Shown: positions 38,501-47,500, counted from the stretch's first letter. The stretch: DNA of 64,000 nucleotides from Candidatus Cloacimonadales bacterium (GCA_963677495.2 CAXXOU010000004.1:768001-832000); one strand, 5' to 3'. Numbers are program-made.

Positions 38501-41500
38501 AACAATTTTGCTCCTAAAGCATTTAAATGATCACCATCTCCGAAACCTTTATCAGGTAATGGAAAACGCGAAAAATCTAGGTATTTAGCATTAAATTCCT
38601 GCTTAAGATGATCATAAACAACCACATGGTTTCGTTTAAAAGCATCCGGTATTTTATTGTAATAATCGTCGTGGACAGGAGTGTTTATAAGAATTATCTC
38701 TATATTGTTTTCGTTACACATACTGCAAATCTTTTTTACGTATGAATACATGAGTTCAGATATTCCTGCTTTTGCGCCATCACTATCATAATGTGCTTTC
38801 AATGACTGTTGTATTGTATCATTCGAAAGGTTACATGTATCATTATATCGATAATATCCACCGAATGGATAGTTTGCTATGTCCGGTTTACCATTGTGCA
38901 TAAGATAGAAAAACAGGTGCATGTTATTTGAAAAGTCGAAGGGTAATCCCCAATCATACTTAAGCTTAGTATATAACCAATCACCATCTTTCTTTGATGT
39001 AAAGATATTTTCTTGATCCGAAATAATCGGGTAATATCTGTTTAAAAGAACATTGCGTCTAACTCCCAACATCTCTTCATCATACAGTGTTGAGAAGTTA
39101 TGATAGGAGAAATTGAGCAGAACTCTTTCAGGTTTGCTGTACTTGAGGAAATAAGTTAACTTCACGTACGTTAGAAAGTAATTCTCACTGTTTTTCGATA
39201 GATTTACAGAGTCCTCGATAATATCAGGATCAATTGCACACTGAGTATGAGAATCTCCCATAATGAATGTTTTTTCATCCAAGGAGAAATACTTAGGATT
39301 ATAGATAGTTGGTAAGAACACAAACTTGTTCACTAAAGTTAATCCAATTATGAAAGCACTTGTAATCAGTAAAAAAATCAGTATGTATTTAAATATATTA
39401 CGCATAGTTAGAATTGGAAATAGATGAATTGGTTCTCGTTAAAGATTCCAAAACAAAAGATTATAACAACGAGAGCACTTAGAATGAAAACACGTTGCAT
39501 AGGTTTTATTGTAGTAAACTTTGAAAGGTCTGTTTCAAACTTTAGATGAATCAATCCCATCAAAGCAATGAATACGAAACTAAGAACAAGTTCTGTCAAA
39601 GTTAGTCCCGGTAAAAAACCACCCCAACTAAGAGGTGATACAATATTTTTAAGAATATAACAAGCTTCAAACAATGAATCAGCTCTAAAGAATATCCAAG
39701 CAAGACTTACAAGTGTAAATGTTATAACTACTCCAAGGAATCTCGGAATCTTAAGATTAAATGGTTTTAAGATATTCCAAAGAATTATCATAACTCCATG
39801 GATTAAGCCCCAAATCATAAATGTCCAGTTTGCTCCATGCCAAAAGCCACTTAAAGCAAAAACAATAGCAAGGTTCAGGTATTTTCTTGGAATAGAAATC
39901 CTATTACCACCAATTGGAATATATAGATAATCTTTAAACCAAGCCGATAGTGAGATATGCCAACGTCTCCAGAACTCGTTAATATTATGAGCAATATAAG
40001 GAGATTTGAAATTTTCCAGGAGTCTGATACCCATCATCCTTGCAATACCTAATGCAATATCAGTATAACCACTAAAATCACAATAGATCTGGAAAGTAAA
40101 AAACACTACACCTATTATTAAGGGTAACCCGGAGTATGCTGTAGCATGTGAGAATACTTCGTCAGAGAAAAGTGCTAATCTATCAGCAATCACTACTTTC
40201 TTAAATAATCCAAAAATAATTCTTGAGATTCCAATCAAAAAATCATCACTTTCTATATGCTTTTTTGTTCTTAACTGGGGTAACAGATGACCGGCCCTTT
40301 CAATCGGTCCGGCAACCAGTTGTGGAAAGAAAGAAACGTATAAAGCAAAATACCCTAAATGTCTTTCCGCTTTAAGTTTTCTTCTATATACATCTATTGT
40401 ATATCCCATTGTCTGGAATGTATAGAAAGAGATGCCAACTGGGAGTAGAACATCTATGAATTTATACCCTTGAGGATATGCATCAGTAAATAGTCCAAGC
40501 AGACTCCCTGAAAGGAAGTTGAAATATTTAAAGAAGAATAGCAGTCCAATATTGGTAACTATACTCAAATACAGGAACAGTTTTTTAGTTCTCTCAGAAT
40601 TACTTGATTCTATCCTAATTCCTGCAATGTAATCAACAATAATTGATGTTACAATCAGAATCAGATAAGCCGGCCTCCAAAAACTATAAAAGAGGAAGCT
40701 TGCTCCAAGTAATAATCCCCATCTACCTCTTTGAGGTACAATGTGAAAAAGAATCAATATTACAGGAAGAAACAGGGCAAATTCCAAGGAATTAAAAAGC
40801 ATTATTCAGTTCTTTCGACCTCTATCAGGTTCTCTCCATTTTTATCTAAGCACATTCTTGATATACCGTTTTCCTGAGAAATCTCAATCGTTCCAGTATA
40901 CTTTCTAAAAACCTTGTTAAAGATTTTTAAGTTAATGAATGATTGAATTTCTAGAACTCCCTTATTGTCAACAGCTTTATAATTAGCTTCTGTTGTAATG
41001 AATCCGGGCATGAATGCTTTTAAGAAGAGAATTGATTTCTCCATGAATGGAGAATAGAAGATTGATAATGGTGGTTTATCATTCCACTCTATCGACTTAC
41101 CTTTGAGATAGGGGAGTCTTGAAAGCAGAATTGCAAATGCATGTAAGCATGTACATCTATTACCATAATAACTGAAACAGTTATAAATTCCTTCATAGAT
41201 TGAGAAATATATATATGATTTATTGTCACTGGTGATGCTCAGATTTCCTAATAAATCCACATTTACTTCCCAGTTTTCTTTGGTAGTGCCACTTGCGACC
41301 TTTTTATTGAATACATAACTATCTTTAACTTTAAATCTCAATAGGTCTTGAAGTGAGTAATCAGGGATTAAAGGAGAGATTAAATCATCTTTTAATGGAA
41401 TTCCATAAGGAGTGAACTCATAATTCATAGTATCTTGAGTCTTCTTATAATTTACAAGATATGACTTAAGAGTTGAGGATCCCGGTTCAGGGCCTAACTG

Positions 41501-44500: not shown

Positions 44501-47500
44501 GCAGGGAAGCGAGGATTAATCTCAATAATAAAGATTTCACCAGCACCATTCTGAATAACTTCGAGCTCTGCCGGTCCTCGCCAGTTCAGAATTCTTATAA
44601 CTTGATGAGTAAACTCAGTTAAAGCCTGATTCTCAATCACAACACCACCAAACCCTTTACCCTTATCGGTAATTATAAGCTTGCGTTGCGGTATCATACC
44701 AAGTACTCCACCTTCACCATCACCAACAAGTGAGACATTGAATTCATCGCCAATCACTTTCTCCTGCACGATTATTGGCAGTCCCCATTTAGCTTTAAGT
44801 CTGGCAAAGACATCAAAAGCTTCGTCAATTGTACACACCTCGTATGCTTCGTACAATCTTCCCTTCACAAAGAACGGGAATGCTATTGTAGTTACAATAT
44901 TATACAACTCTTTAGCATCTGCACAGAAGAAGGTTTTTGGAACTTTGATTCCAAGCTCTCCAAACTCACGGTTAAGCCTTGTCTTATCTCTGGCAAGGAA
45001 CTGCTCTTCTGTTGGTAAGTAGAAGCTAATCCCTCGTTCTTTCAATTTATCTTCAAGTCTAATATAGTTGATTATCTCAGAATCAAGCGTAGGGATAATT
45101 ACATCTATCTTAGTTTTACTCAATATGTAATCAAGACGAGTAAGGAATATCTCTGAGCCACCGGAAGGGAAAGGCATCAGATAGATCTCATCAGCTAAAT
45201 CGTCAACAAAGATTCCCGCTTCAAGTGCATCATAAACTAGTGCTACTATTTTTCCTTTGAATCCCGCATCACGTAAACATCTGATTACGGGAGTGCCGGG
45301 TTGAGGGTTATCTCCGGTCTTTAGACCGGTAACAGCTACTGTTATGTCTAAACTACTTAAATCAATTTGCATATTACTTCACCAAATGAAGGTTTTTAAG
45401 TTGAGTTAAGAAGTATGCAACATCTCTGTTCAGGTTTTCTTCTGTAACTTCATATTCTGACAGTATTTTTGCTTCAATTTCAGTGTCAGATAGGCCTGAT
45501 TTCAAAAGAGATATAATTGTTAAAGCCATATCATTACAATTATAAGATAGCCCTGTTGTAGGGTCAAAAATAAAGCCATTATCGCTAATAGCTAGTTTGT
45601 TTAAATTTGTTACGTCCATATACTAACTCCATTTTATTGCCCGAAGAAAAAGAGAATTACCCCGTAGGGTTATTCTTAAAATACTTATAAATCTCCGTGG
45701 CTAACTTAAGACTGATGCCTTTAACTTCAGTCAGTTCTCCTACTGTTGCACGTTTTATTCCATCTACTGAGCCGAATTCTTTCAATAGGAGGAATTTTGT
45801 TTTATCACCAACACCTTTAATATTGTCTAATTCTGATTTAATTGTGCGCTTACTGCGTCTCTGTCTATGAAAAGTAATTGCAAATCTATGTGCTTCATCT
45901 CTCACATCAATTAACACTCTTAACGCTCCTGAAGATCTGGGGAGGAGTATAGAGCTTGTTTGTCCTGCAACGAAGACTTCTTCGATTCGTTTAGCAAGTG
46001 AAATCATGCTAATCGAGCCGTCTGATTGTTCCCGTAATTGACTGTACGCTCTGTTTAACTGTCCCTTTCCGCCATCTATGACAATCAAGTCCGGTTTTAA
46101 CTGCTCATCTTTTTCAGTTTCATGTAAAAATCTTTCTAAAGTCTCTGCCATGGATGCGAAATCATCTTGTCCAATAACCGTTTTCATAATGAACTTACGG
46201 TACATCTTCTTCTTGGGTTTACCGTTCTCAAAAAATACTGCAGAGGACACTGTATCACTTCCTTGAATCGTCGAAATATCCATACAGACAATCTTACGGG
46301 GTAGCTTTGGTAATCCAAGTAGTTCTTTCAGTTCCTGAATCGGTACAATTGTTCTTGTTGCTTTTCTCAAATGTGCAAGCTTCTGCTCCTCAACATAATT
46401 GAAGGCATTGAGTTTGGCTACATTGATCAGTTGAGCTTTTTCACCACGCTGAGGGAGAGTTAGACGATTTCCTAACCACTCATTCAATACATCCATAATA
46501 TCCGGTTCTAACTGGAGTAATATGCTATGTGGTAACTCATCAATCTGAGCATAATATGATTGCAGGAAGAAAGACAATATCTCAGATTCAGTCGATTCTT
46601 TAACCTGCGATAGGGGATAAACCTCTTTGTGTAGCACTTTACCTTCAACCATCTTGATTACAACAACTGCAGCAATATCTTCCTCTTTCGCGAGAGCTAT
46701 AATATCTCTATCCTTGAAATCAGTAAGGAACATAGTACGATTCGATTGAACTTTCTGAAGTGCTTCAATCTTATCTCTGGTAAGTGCAGCTTTCTCAAAC
46801 TCCATCTTTTCAGCTTGTTCCTGCATCTCAGCTTTCAGTTCATCAATTATCGCATTATGCTTGCCCTTAAGGAACTTCATCATCTGATCAACAACTCGTT
46901 TATACTCATTCACAGATATTTTACCTATACAAGGTGCAGTGCAAGTACCTAATTGGTAGTTGATACAGGCTTTATCAAATACGACCTTGTCAGCAGGAAT
47001 GTTCCTTGTACATCTGCGAATAGGAAAGATCCATTCCATTAACCTCATGGTCTTACGAACAGCTCCTGCATTTGTATGAGGACCGAAGTATCTGTTCCCA
47101 TCCTTCTTATAATCTCTGGTAACAAAGACACGTGGGAATGGTTCTTTAGTAGTAACTTTTATGAAGGGATATCGTTTATCATCTTTCATGATGATGTTAT
47201 ATCGAGGTCTATGTTGCTTGATTAGGTTTGCTTCGAGCTCTAATGCTTCCGACTCTGTATTGGTGATTATATAATCCAAATCACAAATTTTCGAAACTAG
47301 TCTTGCAGTCTTGGGATCAGACGGTTTTCCATTAATATATGACATAACCCTGTTCTTAAGGTTAACTGCTTTCCCTACATATATAATCTTACCTTTCTCA
47401 TTCTTCCAGAGATAACACCCTGGTTTAGAGGGGAGAAGACGTAGTTTAGTTTTTAGTTCTTCCGAAATCTTTGCCATACTTTCTTTATTGCATAGTTTGC

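Follow-up and report, generated by a model that had tools for sequence, protein, structure and literature searches.

The window analysed here, a stretch of 64,000 nucleotides from a Candidatus Cloacimonadales bacterium, contains a widespread but undescribed bacterial gene set, whose conserved unit consists of a RiPP-recognition-element (RRE) protein, an ATP-grasp ligase, a FigC-like decarboxylase, a fusion of a urea-transporter-type (UT) pore with an M23 domain, and two TPR proteins, the first periplasmic and the second with a likely outer-membrane barrel. The decarboxylase begins with a tail that carries a motif resembling the leaders of lasso peptides. We tentatively favour the possibility that the gene set encodes a self-contained, envelope-spanning machine, in which ligation, decarboxylation and hydrolytic release would take place on the decarboxylase's own tail, next to the pore.

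Gene content and conservation of the cassette

The survey's finding had described a cassette of four co-directional genes, and all four open reading frames were recovered on the minus strand, separated by 1, 2 and 3 nucleotides; the Pfam and NCBIfam scores on which it relied were obtained again. The genes, their parts and their downstream neighbours are as follows.

45374..45619, minus strand: 81-aa RRE protein (PqqD fold, lasso-B1 type; Pfam PqqD 4.5e-9, matches of profile A4)
44299..45372, minus strand: ATP-grasp ligase (ATPgrasp_Ter/carbamoyl phosphate synthase (CPS)-like), 357 aa (Pfam and NCBIfam rows, profile A6)
42950..44296, minus strand: fold-type-III PLP decarboxylase, FigC/FslC-like, 448 aa (match to PDB 7kh2, invariant residues, model)
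44207..44296, minus strand: N-terminal tail of the decarboxylase, residues 1-30, Y5-x-x-P8-x-I10 ... K20-F21-G22 (leader-like linear motif, 40-sequence alignment)
40802..42946, minus strand: 714-aa fusion of UT-type pore, M23 zinc hydrolase and C-terminal domain (Pfam UT 5.6e-48, M23 6.3e-16)
42053..42916, minus strand: UT pore domain of the fusion, residues 11-298 (profile against dvUT 3k3f, 1.8e-57)
41498..41770, minus strand: M23 metallopeptidase core (Pfam), fusion residues 393-483, with H360 and D369 upstream at about 41838-41868
40805..41464, minus strand: C-terminal domain of the fusion, about residues 495-714, without known family
39408..40802, minus strand: MBOAT (DltB/AlgI-like) acyltransferase, an insert in this genus only (Pfam MBOAT 2.1e-31)
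38458..39405, minus strand: DUF1574-like protein with N-terminal hydrophobic segment, MBOAT partner (Pfam DUF1574 1.6e-4, below cut-off)
37852..38457, minus strand: 201-aa TPR protein with signal peptide, periplasmic (TPR families)
36663..37880, minus strand: 405-aa protein with signal peptide, TPR and likely outer-membrane beta-barrel (weak TPR matches, composition)
34462..36663, minus strand: 733-aa lipoprotein (lipobox LSGC), downstream partner in this phylum, without Pfam or NCBIfam family

That the four genes form one functional unit is supported by their distribution. Within the phylum, the ATP-grasp ligase is found in 60 and the UT/M23 protein in 61 of 151 genomes; 59 of the 62 genomes with either protein have both, and the three with one alone are all fragmented assemblies. 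In metagenomes, 39 loci extend 3.3 kb or more upstream of a UT/M23 relative, and 37 of them carry the PqqD-family, ATP-grasp and decarboxylase genes in the same order and on the same strand. This sample is biased, as it was drawn from the 80 best among 556 confirmed matches to a single peptide pattern. With phmmer, 650 clusters of the fusion protein were obtained at E<=1e-30 from 1.84 billion representatives, and its three-part length recurs among the best 150 representatives. Our genome and metagenome samples thus agree in direction with the wide side-by-side occurrence noted by the survey. No description of the cassette was found in the literature searched; a 2026 paper lists the UT-M23 fusion as an architecture, without context or function (PMC12998343).

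The four genes are the core of the unit, but its extent is larger, since TPR and barrel proteins follow. In 8 of 9 phylum loci the gene of the 201-aa TPR protein comes after that of the fusion, as genes of TPR proteins do in 42 of 44 metagenome loci. The C-terminal half of the 405-aa protein is rich in Tyr, Gly and Ser and is likely an outer-membrane beta-barrel: a signal peptide together with an OMP-like motif at the C-terminus is present in 28 of 31 relatives, and a cluster of TPR plus YaiO-barrel is among the Atlas look-alikes, at 0.97. The 733-aa lipoprotein has tblastn matches in 5 of the 9 phylum loci. The MBOAT gene, whose overlap with the fusion gene is 1 nt and whose product reaches 151 bits with the dltB model (cut-off 375) and 4e-27 with PDB DltB 6bug, occurs in 2 of 9 related phylum loci, and no MBOAT pair is found in the metagenome flanks (44 flank proteins); together with the DUF1574-like gene it is inserted in this genus alone. 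The DUF1574-like protein has no PDB match and, as a query, no match in five other cassette-bearing genomes.

The cassette proteins and the decarboxylase tail

The 81-aa protein had been called PqqD-like. It has the PqqD fold but is a lasso-B1-type RRE and not a true PqqD, as its family profile (A4) matches TbiB1 (5v1u, 5.4e-13) and TfuB1 (6jx3, 1.1e-10) best, and true PqqD (3g2b) at 0.038 only. The NCBIfam models for lasso PqqD chaperones (3.3e-7 and 5.8e-6) and the HPr-rel-A PqqD (1.5e-5) also match this protein, the only PqqD-family member encoded in the genome. An alignment of 40 sequences contains no invariant Lys, Cys, Ser or acidic residue; the RRE protein therefore lacks an invariant nucleophile and is not itself a covalent carrier. 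No fusion of the RRE with an enzyme, which could indicate which enzyme receives the tail, was found, and none of the three longer matches is enzyme-fused.

The decarboxylase matches PDB 7kh2 at 3.6e-61 with its single sequence and at 6.1e-95 with its profile, and the structural model (mean pLDDT 90.1) does so in Foldseek with an E-value of 2.5e-40 and TM scores of 0.81/0.89. Both the FslC model (3.1e-70, 237.1 bits, cut-off 500) and the LysA model (2e-63, 214.4 bits, cut-off 297.9) stay below their cut-offs; BtrK is a relative at 6e-45, and exosortase-A-associated models are weakly matched by the decarboxylase as well as by the TPR proteins. In 40 decarboxylases K82 (the PLP lysine), H214, the G253-255 loop, E303, C371 and Y400 are invariant. 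M372 adjoins the catalytic C371 as in FigC, and T343 and Y347 correspond to FigC T327 and Y331; these shared pocket residues place the enzyme beside FigC, in which an enlarged pocket accommodates a conjugated substrate. The decarboxylase is thus a member of the FigC/BtrK/SbnH-like group, whose substrates are side-chain-conjugated amino acids (PMC7857480), and because of this grouping the survey's idea that ligation comes first and the conjugate is then decarboxylated is the right logic. Its rhizoferrin or citrate flavour, in contrast, fails: the citrate-contacting H357, R387 and N389 of FigC are replaced by invariant Ile, Gln and Met, two invariant Trp are added, and the cassette contains neither a NIS synthetase nor a TonB-dependent receptor, nor do the 44 flank proteins scanned in related loci include one. 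A citrate or siderophore substrate is unsupported on these grounds.

In the N-terminal tail of the decarboxylase, an aromatic residue at position 5, P8, an aliphatic residue or Phe at position 10, K20, and Gly or Ala at position 22 are each conserved in 40 of 40 sequences. The motif is present in 48 of 48 relatives from metagenome loci, and no tail-less relative is among these 48. In 38 of the 39 sequences that were parsed, 15 positions separate the aromatic residue from the Lys, and in 37 of 39 the Lys is 13 positions from the fold; the 13-residue spacer between K20 and the enzyme body is fixed in length and otherwise variable in sequence. The 30 residues are predicted to be disordered, being modelled without secondary structure at pLDDT values of 44-59. 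In lasso leaders, YxxPxL spans -17 to -12 and position -2 carries a conserved residue (PMC10368454, PMC6784204); K20 of the tail falls into the -2 register, with Gly or Ala at +1. A loose version of the tail pattern occurs 13 times in the 3,125,284 six-frame residues of the genome, and among these only the decarboxylase tail stands at the N-terminus of a long open reading frame. No conserved small open reading frame was found within 1.5 kb. Among 10 of 43 short matches to the tail no stand-alone tail peptide was seen; nine continue into the enzyme body, and one (33 aa) ends just past the motif. These searches brought up no other client of the RRE protein. The survey had remarked that no precursor peptide gene is seen; a separate gene is indeed absent, but, judged by the lasso-leader motif Y-x-x-P-x-[IL], the missing precursor is most likely the decarboxylase's own N-terminal tail.

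The ATP-grasp ligase matches ATPgrasp_Ter (3.5e-9) and an NCBIfam carbamoyl phosphate synthase-like model (1.2e-27). Its profile (A6) finds the CPS large chain best (1a9x, 1.1e-16), followed by 2pn1 (1.2e-11) and biotin-carboxylase domains; urea amidolyase is matched at 2.6e-7. E284-x-N286-P-R288 and the Lys/Glu set for ATP binding are invariant in 45 sequences. The closest kin are bicarbonate-activating enzymes (CPS, biotin carboxylases) rather than enzymes modifying proteins or peptides: of 68 matches at E<=0.01, the 60 listed include no LysX, RimK or PGM1.

The fusion protein does, as the survey had it, combine a true UT fold with an M23 domain. Both LPxx[ST]xPF-type signatures are present in the UT domain, as is the cytoplasmic 'PE.N' tail, and the urea_trans_yut model reaches 2.2e-28, with 99 bits against a cut-off of 274.6. 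Across 67 sequences, the Q(Pa) position of the permeation motif is Gln in 31 and T(5a) is Ser or Thr in 65, Q(Pb) is Gln in none, and T(5b) is Thr in 6. The pore therefore lacks the periplasm-facing half of the urea-recognition motif, so that 'urea channel' names its fold and not its function. The zinc-binding and catalytic residues H360, D369, H444, H477 and H479 of the M23 domain are invariant in 67 sequences. No hydrophobic segment is found past residue 300 of the fusion (maximum Kyte-Doolittle value 0.98), and the M23 domain lies on the cytoplasmic side of the membrane. For the C-terminal domain, whose length is conserved across the family, the best Pfam E-value is 0.089; outside UT and M23 the fusion has no PDB sequence match.

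A possible mechanism and its alternatives

In the mechanism that we tentatively favour, the RRE protein most likely grips the conserved tail, a proposal made by analogy with lasso peptide leaders: it would bind Y-x-x-P-x-[IL] at residues 5-10 and thereby present the invariant K20-[FY]-[GA]22, 15 residues downstream and in the lasso leader/core register, with the spacer tying this site to the enzyme body. The ATP-grasp ligase would acylate this site with an amino-acid unit, linked through the side-chain carboxylate of that unit; the simplest target would be the epsilon-amine of K20. The FigC/BtrK-type decarboxylase would strip the alpha-carboxylate from the tethered unit in cis. The M23 hydrolase at the cytoplasmic face of the pore might then cut the amide, and a small amine or amide would exit through the modified pore, beyond which the periplasmic TPR and TPR-barrel proteins lie. 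The earlier interpretation is partly supported: the functional unit, the ligate-first logic and the UT-M23 fusion stand, and the citrate flavour, the urea-channel function and the four-gene extent do not.

Several observations speak against chemistry on the tail. The -2 residue is Lys here and Thr in lasso leaders, and the Gly of the lasso x3-G spacing comes two residues later. Release by simple hydrolysis of the bond just made would amount to a net ATP-costly decarboxylation, which would need a reason such as protection, export coupling or iteration. A pore of the UT type is narrow and unlikely to let zwitterionic omega-amino acids through, and the pair of TPR-barrel proteins would be better matched to a cargo larger than a small amine. 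The kinship of the ATP-grasp to bicarbonate-activating enzymes also weighs on this side, as does the failure to find an RRE-enzyme fusion.

A possible but rather doubtful alternative retains the survey's small-molecule pathway without citrate: a free amino acid of the diamino or dicarboxylic type would be coupled to a carboxylate by the ATP-grasp, the decarboxylase would turn the conjugate into an N-acyl amine, the M23 domain would trim or mature it, the pore would export it, and RRE and tail would only dock the enzymes at the membrane. The catalytic residues are intact in all enzymes, the four-gene coupling is equally strong under this reading, the matches listed for the ATP-grasp reveal no detectable kinship to protein-modifying ATP-grasps, and FigC, SbnH and BtrK-type relatives use conjugates from a separate ligase (PMC7857480). 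A docking handle, however, leaves unexplained the invariant Lys and small residue 15 and 17 positions past the RRE motif and the fixed spacer of variable sequence; given Ile, Gln, Met and two Trp at the citrate site, the substrate's distal portion is no acidic small molecule, and a second biosynthetic gene for an unusual acid is lacking in the cassette and among the 44 flank proteins. This pathway is still a live rival, but with a leader-like motif on the tail and a lasso-B1-type RRE a free diamino acid as substrate is no longer the most economical reading. Unlikely in our view is leader-guided processing of the enzyme, in which the RRE would deliver the tail to the M23 domain for cleavage between residues 21 and 22, the ATP-grasp would modify the Gly/Ala N-terminus so exposed or a side chain close to it, and the decarboxylase, activated or anchored only at the pore, would make the permeant from free substrate. 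Characterised M23 enzymes are known to cut beside Gly or Ala, which would fit, and in function RRE, protease and ATP-dependent amide-forming enzyme correspond to lasso B1, B2 and C. The leader/core register with its invariant -2 residue and Gly/Ala at +1 agrees as well (PMC10368454, PMC6784204). Yet a discarded propeptide needs no fixed-length spacer to the fold, a constitutively active tail-less relative is missing among the 48 examined, and the enlarged hydrophobic, FigC-like pocket calls for a conjugated substrate, which this model does not supply.

A further, quite improbable explanation is that a cytoplasmic aminoacyl or amine donor crosses the inner membrane and is attached to a periplasmic or outer-membrane polymer, or to peptidoglycan, with the TPR and TPR-barrel proteins acting as in synthase-dependent exopolymer systems and the MBOAT and its partner acylating the same target in this genus. 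The TPR proteins, including the likely TPR-barrel, in 42 of 44 loci, the MBOAT and DUF1574-like genes inside the operon, the weak exosortase-A-associated matches, and peptidoglycan peptides as the normal M23 target are consistent with this; but a glycosyltransferase, polymerase or flippase is missing from the cassette and the 44 flank proteins, the MBOAT pair is confined to 2 of 9 phylum loci, the M23 domain is on the cytoplasmic side, and a UT pore cannot pass a polymer. Least probable is urea or ureido metabolism, in which the CPS-like ATP-grasp would build a carbamate or ureido compound, the hydrolase would free urea or an analogue, and the UT domain would pass it. The closeness of this domain to true urea channels (dvUT) and the bicarbonate-activating relatives of the ATP-grasp (CPS, urea amidolyase) point in this direction; however, CPS similarity is the default for unassigned ATP-grasps, the cassette has no biotin carrier, urease or ureohydrolase, and the pore has lost Q(Pb) and T(5b), the residues to which Q231 and T338 correspond in hUT-A2, where the mutations Q231A and T338A reduce urea transport (PMC11589576).

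Comparison with known systems

Like the urea channels of the UT/SLC14 family (dvUT, UT-A, UT-B), the cassette pore has a full-length UT fold with both signatures and the cytoplasmic tail; unlike them, it has lost Q(Pb) and T(5b) and is fused to M23 and a 220-aa domain without known family. The closest solved relative of the decarboxylase by sequence, profile and fold is FigC/FslC, the N-citrylornithine decarboxylase of rhizoferrin synthesis in Francisella, and SbnH belongs to the same group; the Met beside the catalytic Cys and the Thr and Tyr of the specificity helix indicate the same enlarged pocket for a side-chain-conjugated amino acid. A leader-like tail, in contrast, is not reported for FigC, whose first 25 residues lie outside the alignment.

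The small protein resembles the lasso B1 RREs (TbiB1/TbiA, TfuB1/TfuA), the putative bound motif resembles lasso leaders in Y-x-x-P-x-[IL], the conserved residue 15 positions later and the small residue at +1, and the RRE is accompanied by a hydrolase and an ATP-dependent amide-forming enzyme as in lasso B2/C. In contrast to lasso systems, a 448-aa enzyme carries the leader at its N-terminus, the genome lacks a transglutaminase-type B2 protease and the cassette an Asn-synthetase-type cyclase, and B2 is replaced by an M23 domain and C by an ATP-grasp, with a membrane pore joined to them. In butirosin biosynthesis (BtrI/BtrJ/BtrK) and the LysW/LysX/LysK system an ATP-grasp enzyme loads an amino acid on a small carrier, an enzyme modifies it and a hydrolase releases it; the modifying enzyme in butirosin is the fold-III decarboxylase BtrK. 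The cassette resembles these systems in its load-modify-release logic, but it contains neither an acyl carrier nor a LysW-type protein, its small protein has the PqqD fold without an invariant nucleophile, the part of the hydrolase falls to an M23 domain in a channel fusion, and the carrier would be the tail of the decarboxylase itself.

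Layout and distribution of the cassette

Eleven minus-strand genes lie in an unbroken row from position 49039 down to 34462, with intergenic gaps of -29 to +37 nt. The survey had described four of them as a cassette, and both their coordinates, which agree exactly, and their family scores (Pfam, NCBIfam) were reproduced. Downstream of the gene for the UT/M23 fusion protein follow, in order, an MBOAT gene and genes for a DUF1574-like protein, a 201-aa TPR protein, a 405-aa TPR protein and a 733-aa lipoprotein.

Features of the gene row, and an additional gene found in related loci
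45657-49039, minus strand: murJ and uvrC, directly upstream of the cassette
Minus strand: 81-aa protein; PqqD 4.5e-9
Minus strand: 357-aa protein; ATPgrasp_Ter 3.5e-9, 'carbamoyl phosphate synthase-like' 1.2e-27
Minus strand: 448-aa Orn/DAP/Arg decarboxylase; FslC 237.1 bits (cut-off 500), LysA 214.4 bits (cut-off 297.9)
Minus strand: 714-aa fusion protein; UT at residues 11-298, M23 at residues 393-483
38458-40802, minus strand: MBOAT (DltB/AlgI-like) and DUF1574-like protein, after the fusion gene and ahead of the TPR genes, 1-nt overlap
34462-36663, minus strand: 733-aa lipoprotein matching no family, after the TPR genes; also in the related loci L009, L013 and L015
L073 8372-8947, L088 8372-8947 and L095 4266-4844 (metagenome loci): 191-aa sigma-70-region-2 protein

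The genes murJ and uvrC overlap by 25 nt, and their linkage to the cassette is confined to the genus. Because uvrC ends only 37 nt before the gene for the RiPP recognition element (RRE) protein, the cassette may here lack its own promoter. A scan of nine loci (144 kb) at Rfam gathering thresholds found no riboswitch upstream of the cassette, only three tRNAs, and none of the PADLOC defence families matched any of nine operon proteins.

The core of the row is conserved well beyond the genus. Source names carried by close relatives of the ATP-grasp ligase, together with one genome locus, point to Candidatus Cloacimonadota. Of 151 sampled phylum genomes, 60 gave a match to the ATP-grasp ligase, 61 to the fusion protein and 59 to both; the three genomes holding one of them alone (G138, G046 and G061) are all fragmented assemblies. 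PqqD, ATP-grasp and decarboxylase genes are present in all nine related loci, and the fusion and 201-aa TPR genes in eight, the ninth contig ending before both. Counterparts of the 405-aa and of the 733-aa protein were each matched in five of the nine, and the MBOAT pair, murJ and uvrC only in the two closest. Metagenome loci were sampled as the best 80 of 556 confirmed matches to one peptide pattern, and the sample is therefore biased. In six-frame profile searches of this sample, 37 of the 39 loci with at least 3.3 kb upstream carry the PqqD, ATP-grasp and decarboxylase genes in the same order and on the same strand, the exceptions being L058, which has none of the three, and L084, which has insertions; TPR proteins on the same strand were found in 42 of the 44 loci with at least 2.5 kb downstream. 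L058 (about 9001-12653) holds the fusion gene and both TPR genes but lacks all three upstream genes over a distance of 4.5 kb, and may represent a split cassette. The flanks are otherwise variable, and a scan of 44 flank proteins turned up neither a glycosyltransferase nor an NIS synthetase or TonB-dependent receptor. L048, L073 and L087 have AraC-type regulators immediately upstream, and L076 has a LytTR two-component pair there. Three metagenome loci encode, between the decarboxylase and fusion genes, the 191-aa protein, which contains sigma-70 region 2 and matches DUF3829 weakly.

With phmmer, 650 clusters of the fusion family were recovered at E<=1e-30 from 1.84 billion protein representatives. 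Nearly all of the best 150 representatives are 700-750 aa long and match across the pore, the M23 domain and part or all of the C-terminal region. Two representatives of 953 and 981 aa (P0240 and P0223) continue into a lipoprotein signal peptide and lipobox; since the lipobox comes after the domain end, these long 'variants' are probably gene calls that merge the fusion gene with the next lipoprotein gene. Named look-alike clusters in the protein atlas come from Bacteroidota and Campylobacterota, and cluster members are labelled Deltaproteobacteria and Melioribacteraceae. Thus, with 650 clusters, 61 of 151 phylum genomes, and look-alikes named from Bacteroidota, Campylobacterota, Deltaproteobacteria-type and Ignavibacteria-type genomes, the cassette is common, and no product or phenotype is on record for any member in the literature searched. 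A full-text search, with most subscription journals outside its reach, found no description of the cassette, and Cagliani et al. (2026, PMC12998343) list UT plus M23 as a bacterial domain architecture with neither context nor function. In one of the control genomes, that of Bacteroides thetaiotaomicron, a PqqD match over its cut-off and a weak UT match under its cut-off were seen; should this species carry a diverged form of the cassette, fitness data already published would be informative on function.

An RRE protein and a decarboxylase with a conserved tail

A profile built from 40 cassette RREs and compared with the PDB matched the lasso RREs TbiB1 (5.4e-13) and TfuB1 (1.1e-10) and, far behind, true PqqD (0.038). 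The NCBIfam lasso_PqqD models gave the 81-aa protein 30 and 26 bits, under their cut-offs of 70 and 80. By its sequence profile, it is a discrete B1-type RRE with the PqqD fold. It matches PqqD only and no PP-binding family, has no invariant nucleophile, and is encoded by the only PqqD-family gene in the genome. Three longer relatives were found, none fused to an enzyme, which is weak evidence against RRE-enzyme fusions.

The candidate client of this RRE is found at the N-terminus of the decarboxylase. An extension of about 30 residues precedes the fold in all 48 relatives from metagenome loci and in the loci of the phylum. In 40 aligned decarboxylases, position 5 is aromatic, position 8 Pro, position 10 aliphatic or Phe, position 20 Lys and position 22 Gly or Ala without exception, position 12 is Arg or Lys in 39, and position 16 is Gly in 36. 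The distance from the aromatic residue to the lysine is 15 in 38 of 39 parsed sequences, and that from the lysine to the fold is 13 in 37 of 39, though residues 23-32 vary. In an AlphaFold2 model of the decarboxylase (mean pLDDT 90.1), residues 1-10, 11-20 and 21-30 have values of 56, 44 and 59, and there is no secondary structure before residue 32. Conserved yet predicted to be disordered, the tail looks like a linear binding motif. A loose version of its pattern occurs 13 times in 3.1 million residues of the six-frame translated genome, and only the occurrence in the tail lies at the N-terminus of a long open reading frame.

The survey had noted the lack of a precursor gene, and this held: no separate short precursor was found, and the motif was seen solely as part of the decarboxylase. 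Within 1.5 kb of the cassette, the RRE-bearing loci have no small ORF that is conserved; the recurrent small ORFs are shadows of coding genes. Among 43 short matches to the tail, ten were examined; nine run on into the enzyme, and one of 33 aa stops just past the motif. No candidate client for the RRE other than the tail is in sight.

The solved protein closest to the body of the cassette decarboxylase is the N-citrylornithine decarboxylase FigC (7kh2), by sequence (3.6e-61), by profile (6.1e-95, versus 2.5e-68 for LysA and 6e-45 for the butirosin enzyme BtrK) and by fold (Foldseek E 2.5e-40, TM 0.81/0.89). Li et al. (PMC7857480) assign FigC specificity to M355, T327, T330 and Y331 and citrate contacts to H357, R387 and N389. 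We mapped these positions by HMMER alignment, with a chain-to-paper offset of 19 that reproduces every residue named there. M355, beside the catalytic Cys and replaced by Asp in ODC and DAPDC, corresponds to M372; T327 and Y331 correspond to T343 and Y347, and T330 to W346. The citrate contacts H357 and R387 are replaced by I374 and Q404, both invariant, and N389 by the nearly invariant M406, with W405 beside. All mapped positions are invariant or nearly so in 40 cassette decarboxylases. FigC-like specificity residues combined with replaced citrate contacts therefore point to a pocket that suits a large conjugated substrate but has a neutral and hydrophobic far end, not one built for citrate. 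The rhizoferrin flavour that the survey's finding had given to the pathway accordingly falls away: the FslC score (237.1 bits) is far from its cut-off of 500, there is no NIS synthetase, and the citrate contacts of FigC are replaced. A siderophore pathway was rejected on the pocket residues and on the missing NIS synthetase and receptor; no IucA/IucC-type protein is among the operon proteins.

A role as housekeeping LysA was rejected on the score, on the residues, and because the cassette is absent from about 90 of 151 sampled phylum genomes. Met372 stands in place of the LysA Asp, and T343, W346 and Y347 occupy the specificity helix where LysA has Arg. The only other LysA-like gene in the genome (G000:C4:18007-19062; L097 1453-2613) is shorter, encodes 386 aa and scores 166 bits (lysA cut-off 297.9); although the genome is 99.5% complete, not one of its genes attains the LysA equivalog score.

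In the ATP-grasp protein, the catalytic E-x-N-P-R motif and lysines are invariant. Among solved structures it is closest to the CPS large chain (1.1e-16), then to the structural-genomics protein 2pn1 and biotin-carboxylase domains, with Ddl and VanA at about 1e-4; the 60 matches listed of 68 at E<=0.01 include no LysX, RimK or PGM1.

The fusion protein and the outer parts

The membrane part of the fusion protein has the UT fold (Pfam UT 164 bits, cut-off 25), and the profile of the fusion family matches the solved urea channel dvUT at 1.8e-57 in an alignment that takes in the cytoplasmic 'PE.N' tail. Judged by these matches, it is a close relative of real urea channels. According to Huang et al. 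2024 (PMC11589576), the polar permeation motif of UT proteins is Q(Pb)-T(5b)-T(5a)-Q(Pa), and the substitutions Q67A, T176A, Q231A and T338A in hUT-A2 significantly reduce transport. At the corresponding positions of 67 fusion-family members, Q(Pb) is never Gln (Ala in 40), T(5b) is Thr in six and Ser in 12, 65 members keep Ser or Thr at T(5a), and 31 have Gln at Q(Pa); the fusion protein of the window has S179, A285, S130 and T20, respectively. Because Q(Pb) and T(5b) are mostly lost, the periplasm-facing pocket of the pore has been rebuilt.

No hydrophobic segment was found in the sequence after residue 300, and the M23 and C-terminal domains should therefore lie on the side of the UT C-terminus. 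That side we take, from the general topology of UT proteins and alongside the homology, to be cytoplasmic, which would place both domains in the cytoplasm. The zinc and catalytic set of M23 is complete (H360, D369, H444, H477 and H479, invariant in 67 sequences), with eight residues between the first His and Asp versus the usual HxxxD. The last 220 residues matched no family.

Further downstream, the 201-aa TPR and 405-aa proteins each begin with a signal peptide, and a lipobox is present in the 733-aa protein. The 405-aa protein has a C-terminal half with much Tyr, Gly and Ser; a signal peptide together with an OMP-like C-terminal motif (e.g. GGIKWKF) occurs in 28 of its 31 counterparts in other loci, and one of its look-alikes in the atlas, at 0.97, is a cluster of TPR plus YaiO-barrel proteins. 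Composition, C-terminal motif and look-alikes together suggest a barrel. Weak TPR_Slam hints appear in some TPR-barrel relatives, and the 733-aa lipoprotein was found in five of nine phylum loci and not in other phyla; this raises the idea of a putative Slam-like barrel with a surface lipoprotein as cargo.

The MBOAT pair is genus-specific (two of nine related loci). The MBOAT protein scores 151 bits against dltB (cut-off 375) and matches 6bug at 4e-27, and a query with the DUF1574-like protein, run with no positive control, found nothing in five other cassette genomes. The pair could acylate an envelope target along with the cassette product, or be a chance insertion.

Mechanistic readings and comparison with known systems

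The most economical reading, which we put forward tentatively, is that chemistry takes place on the decarboxylase tail, by ligation, decarboxylation in cis and release by M23 at the pore. By analogy with lasso leaders, the RRE would hold tail residues 5-10; the ATP-grasp enzyme would use an amino-acid unit to acylate the tail at the K20 site, the decarboxylase would act in cis on the tethered unit, and a cytoplasmic M23 hydrolase at the pore mouth would cut the amide, upon which the product would leave. Decarboxylation in cis would be in keeping with both the fixed length of the spacer and the hydrophobic far end of the pocket. A more far-reaching form, in which a PLP enzyme with its own RiPP-type leader acts as its own carrier, is gripped at its tail by the RRE, is loaded at K20 by the ATP-grasp enzyme and decarboxylates in cis, possibly repeatedly, until a cytoplasmic M23 hydrolase mounted on the channel sets the product free into a UT-derived pore no longer tuned to urea, is possible if rather doubtful. 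BtrJ and BtrK act over repeated rounds, and rounds of this kind would build an oligo-omega-amino-acid chain.

Chemistry on the tail has its weaknesses. Energetically, a release that only undoes the ligation would be puzzling, zwitterions would pass poorly through so narrow a pore, and the ligase appears to be without kinship to protein-modifying ATP-grasps among the 60 matches listed of 68. A pathway for a free small molecule, where the RRE and the tail do no more than bring the enzymes together, is in our view unlikely but a live rival. The leaders of discrete B1 proteins carry YxxPxL at -17 to -12, a conserved Thr at -2 and a small +1 residue, according to PMC10368454 and PMC6784204; applied to the tail, this register puts K20 at -2 and the Gly or Ala of position 22 at +1. 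Cleavage between residues 21 and 22 as a lasso-like activation step would fit the register, but we regard such cleavage as improbable. The TPR-barrel pair and the genus-specific MBOAT insert suggest modification of an envelope polymer, to which we give still less credence, and urea or ureido chemistry, for which the UT fold would speak and the altered permeation motif would not, is the least credible of all.

If the tail does act as template, this would be the first RRE to have a full-size enzyme as its client. Such a finding would widen the notion of a 'precursor' for genome mining, explain why RiPP-mining tools that seek short precursor genes would miss the cassette, and add to the UT fold a role beyond urea transport and to the M23 fold one in the cytoplasm. 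If the PLP enzyme is indeed its own carrier, lasso leader recognition, carrier-tethered amino-acid modification and channel-coupled release would be merged in one machine that spans many diderm phyla.

The cassette shares single features with several known systems. With UT urea channels it has the UT fold in common, whereas the permeation motif is only half kept in the fusion protein. Rhizoferrin synthesis by FslA/FslC (FigA/FigC) has an NIS synthetase partner and citrate-contacting residues, neither of which is seen in the cassette. The butirosin proteins BtrI, BtrJ and BtrK include the phosphopantetheinyl carrier BtrI, in contrast to the cassette, whose small protein matches no PP-binding family. 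From Dlt D-alanylation only the MBOAT is matched here, with no DltA or DltC, and the MBOAT partner matches no DltD structure. A lasso cluster was rejected because precursor, B2 and C are missing, the B2-type protease family PF13471 having no match in the 99.5%-complete genome and Asn_synthase being absent among the 11 operon proteins: the discrete B1-type RRE is common to both, but a separate leader-core precursor, the B2 protease and an Asn-synthetase cyclase are found only in lasso clusters. For the decarboxylase tail, a precedent of logic only is offered by fosfazinomycin, where, according to a 2026 preprint (PMC13622209), a small molecule is assembled on a scaffold peptide.
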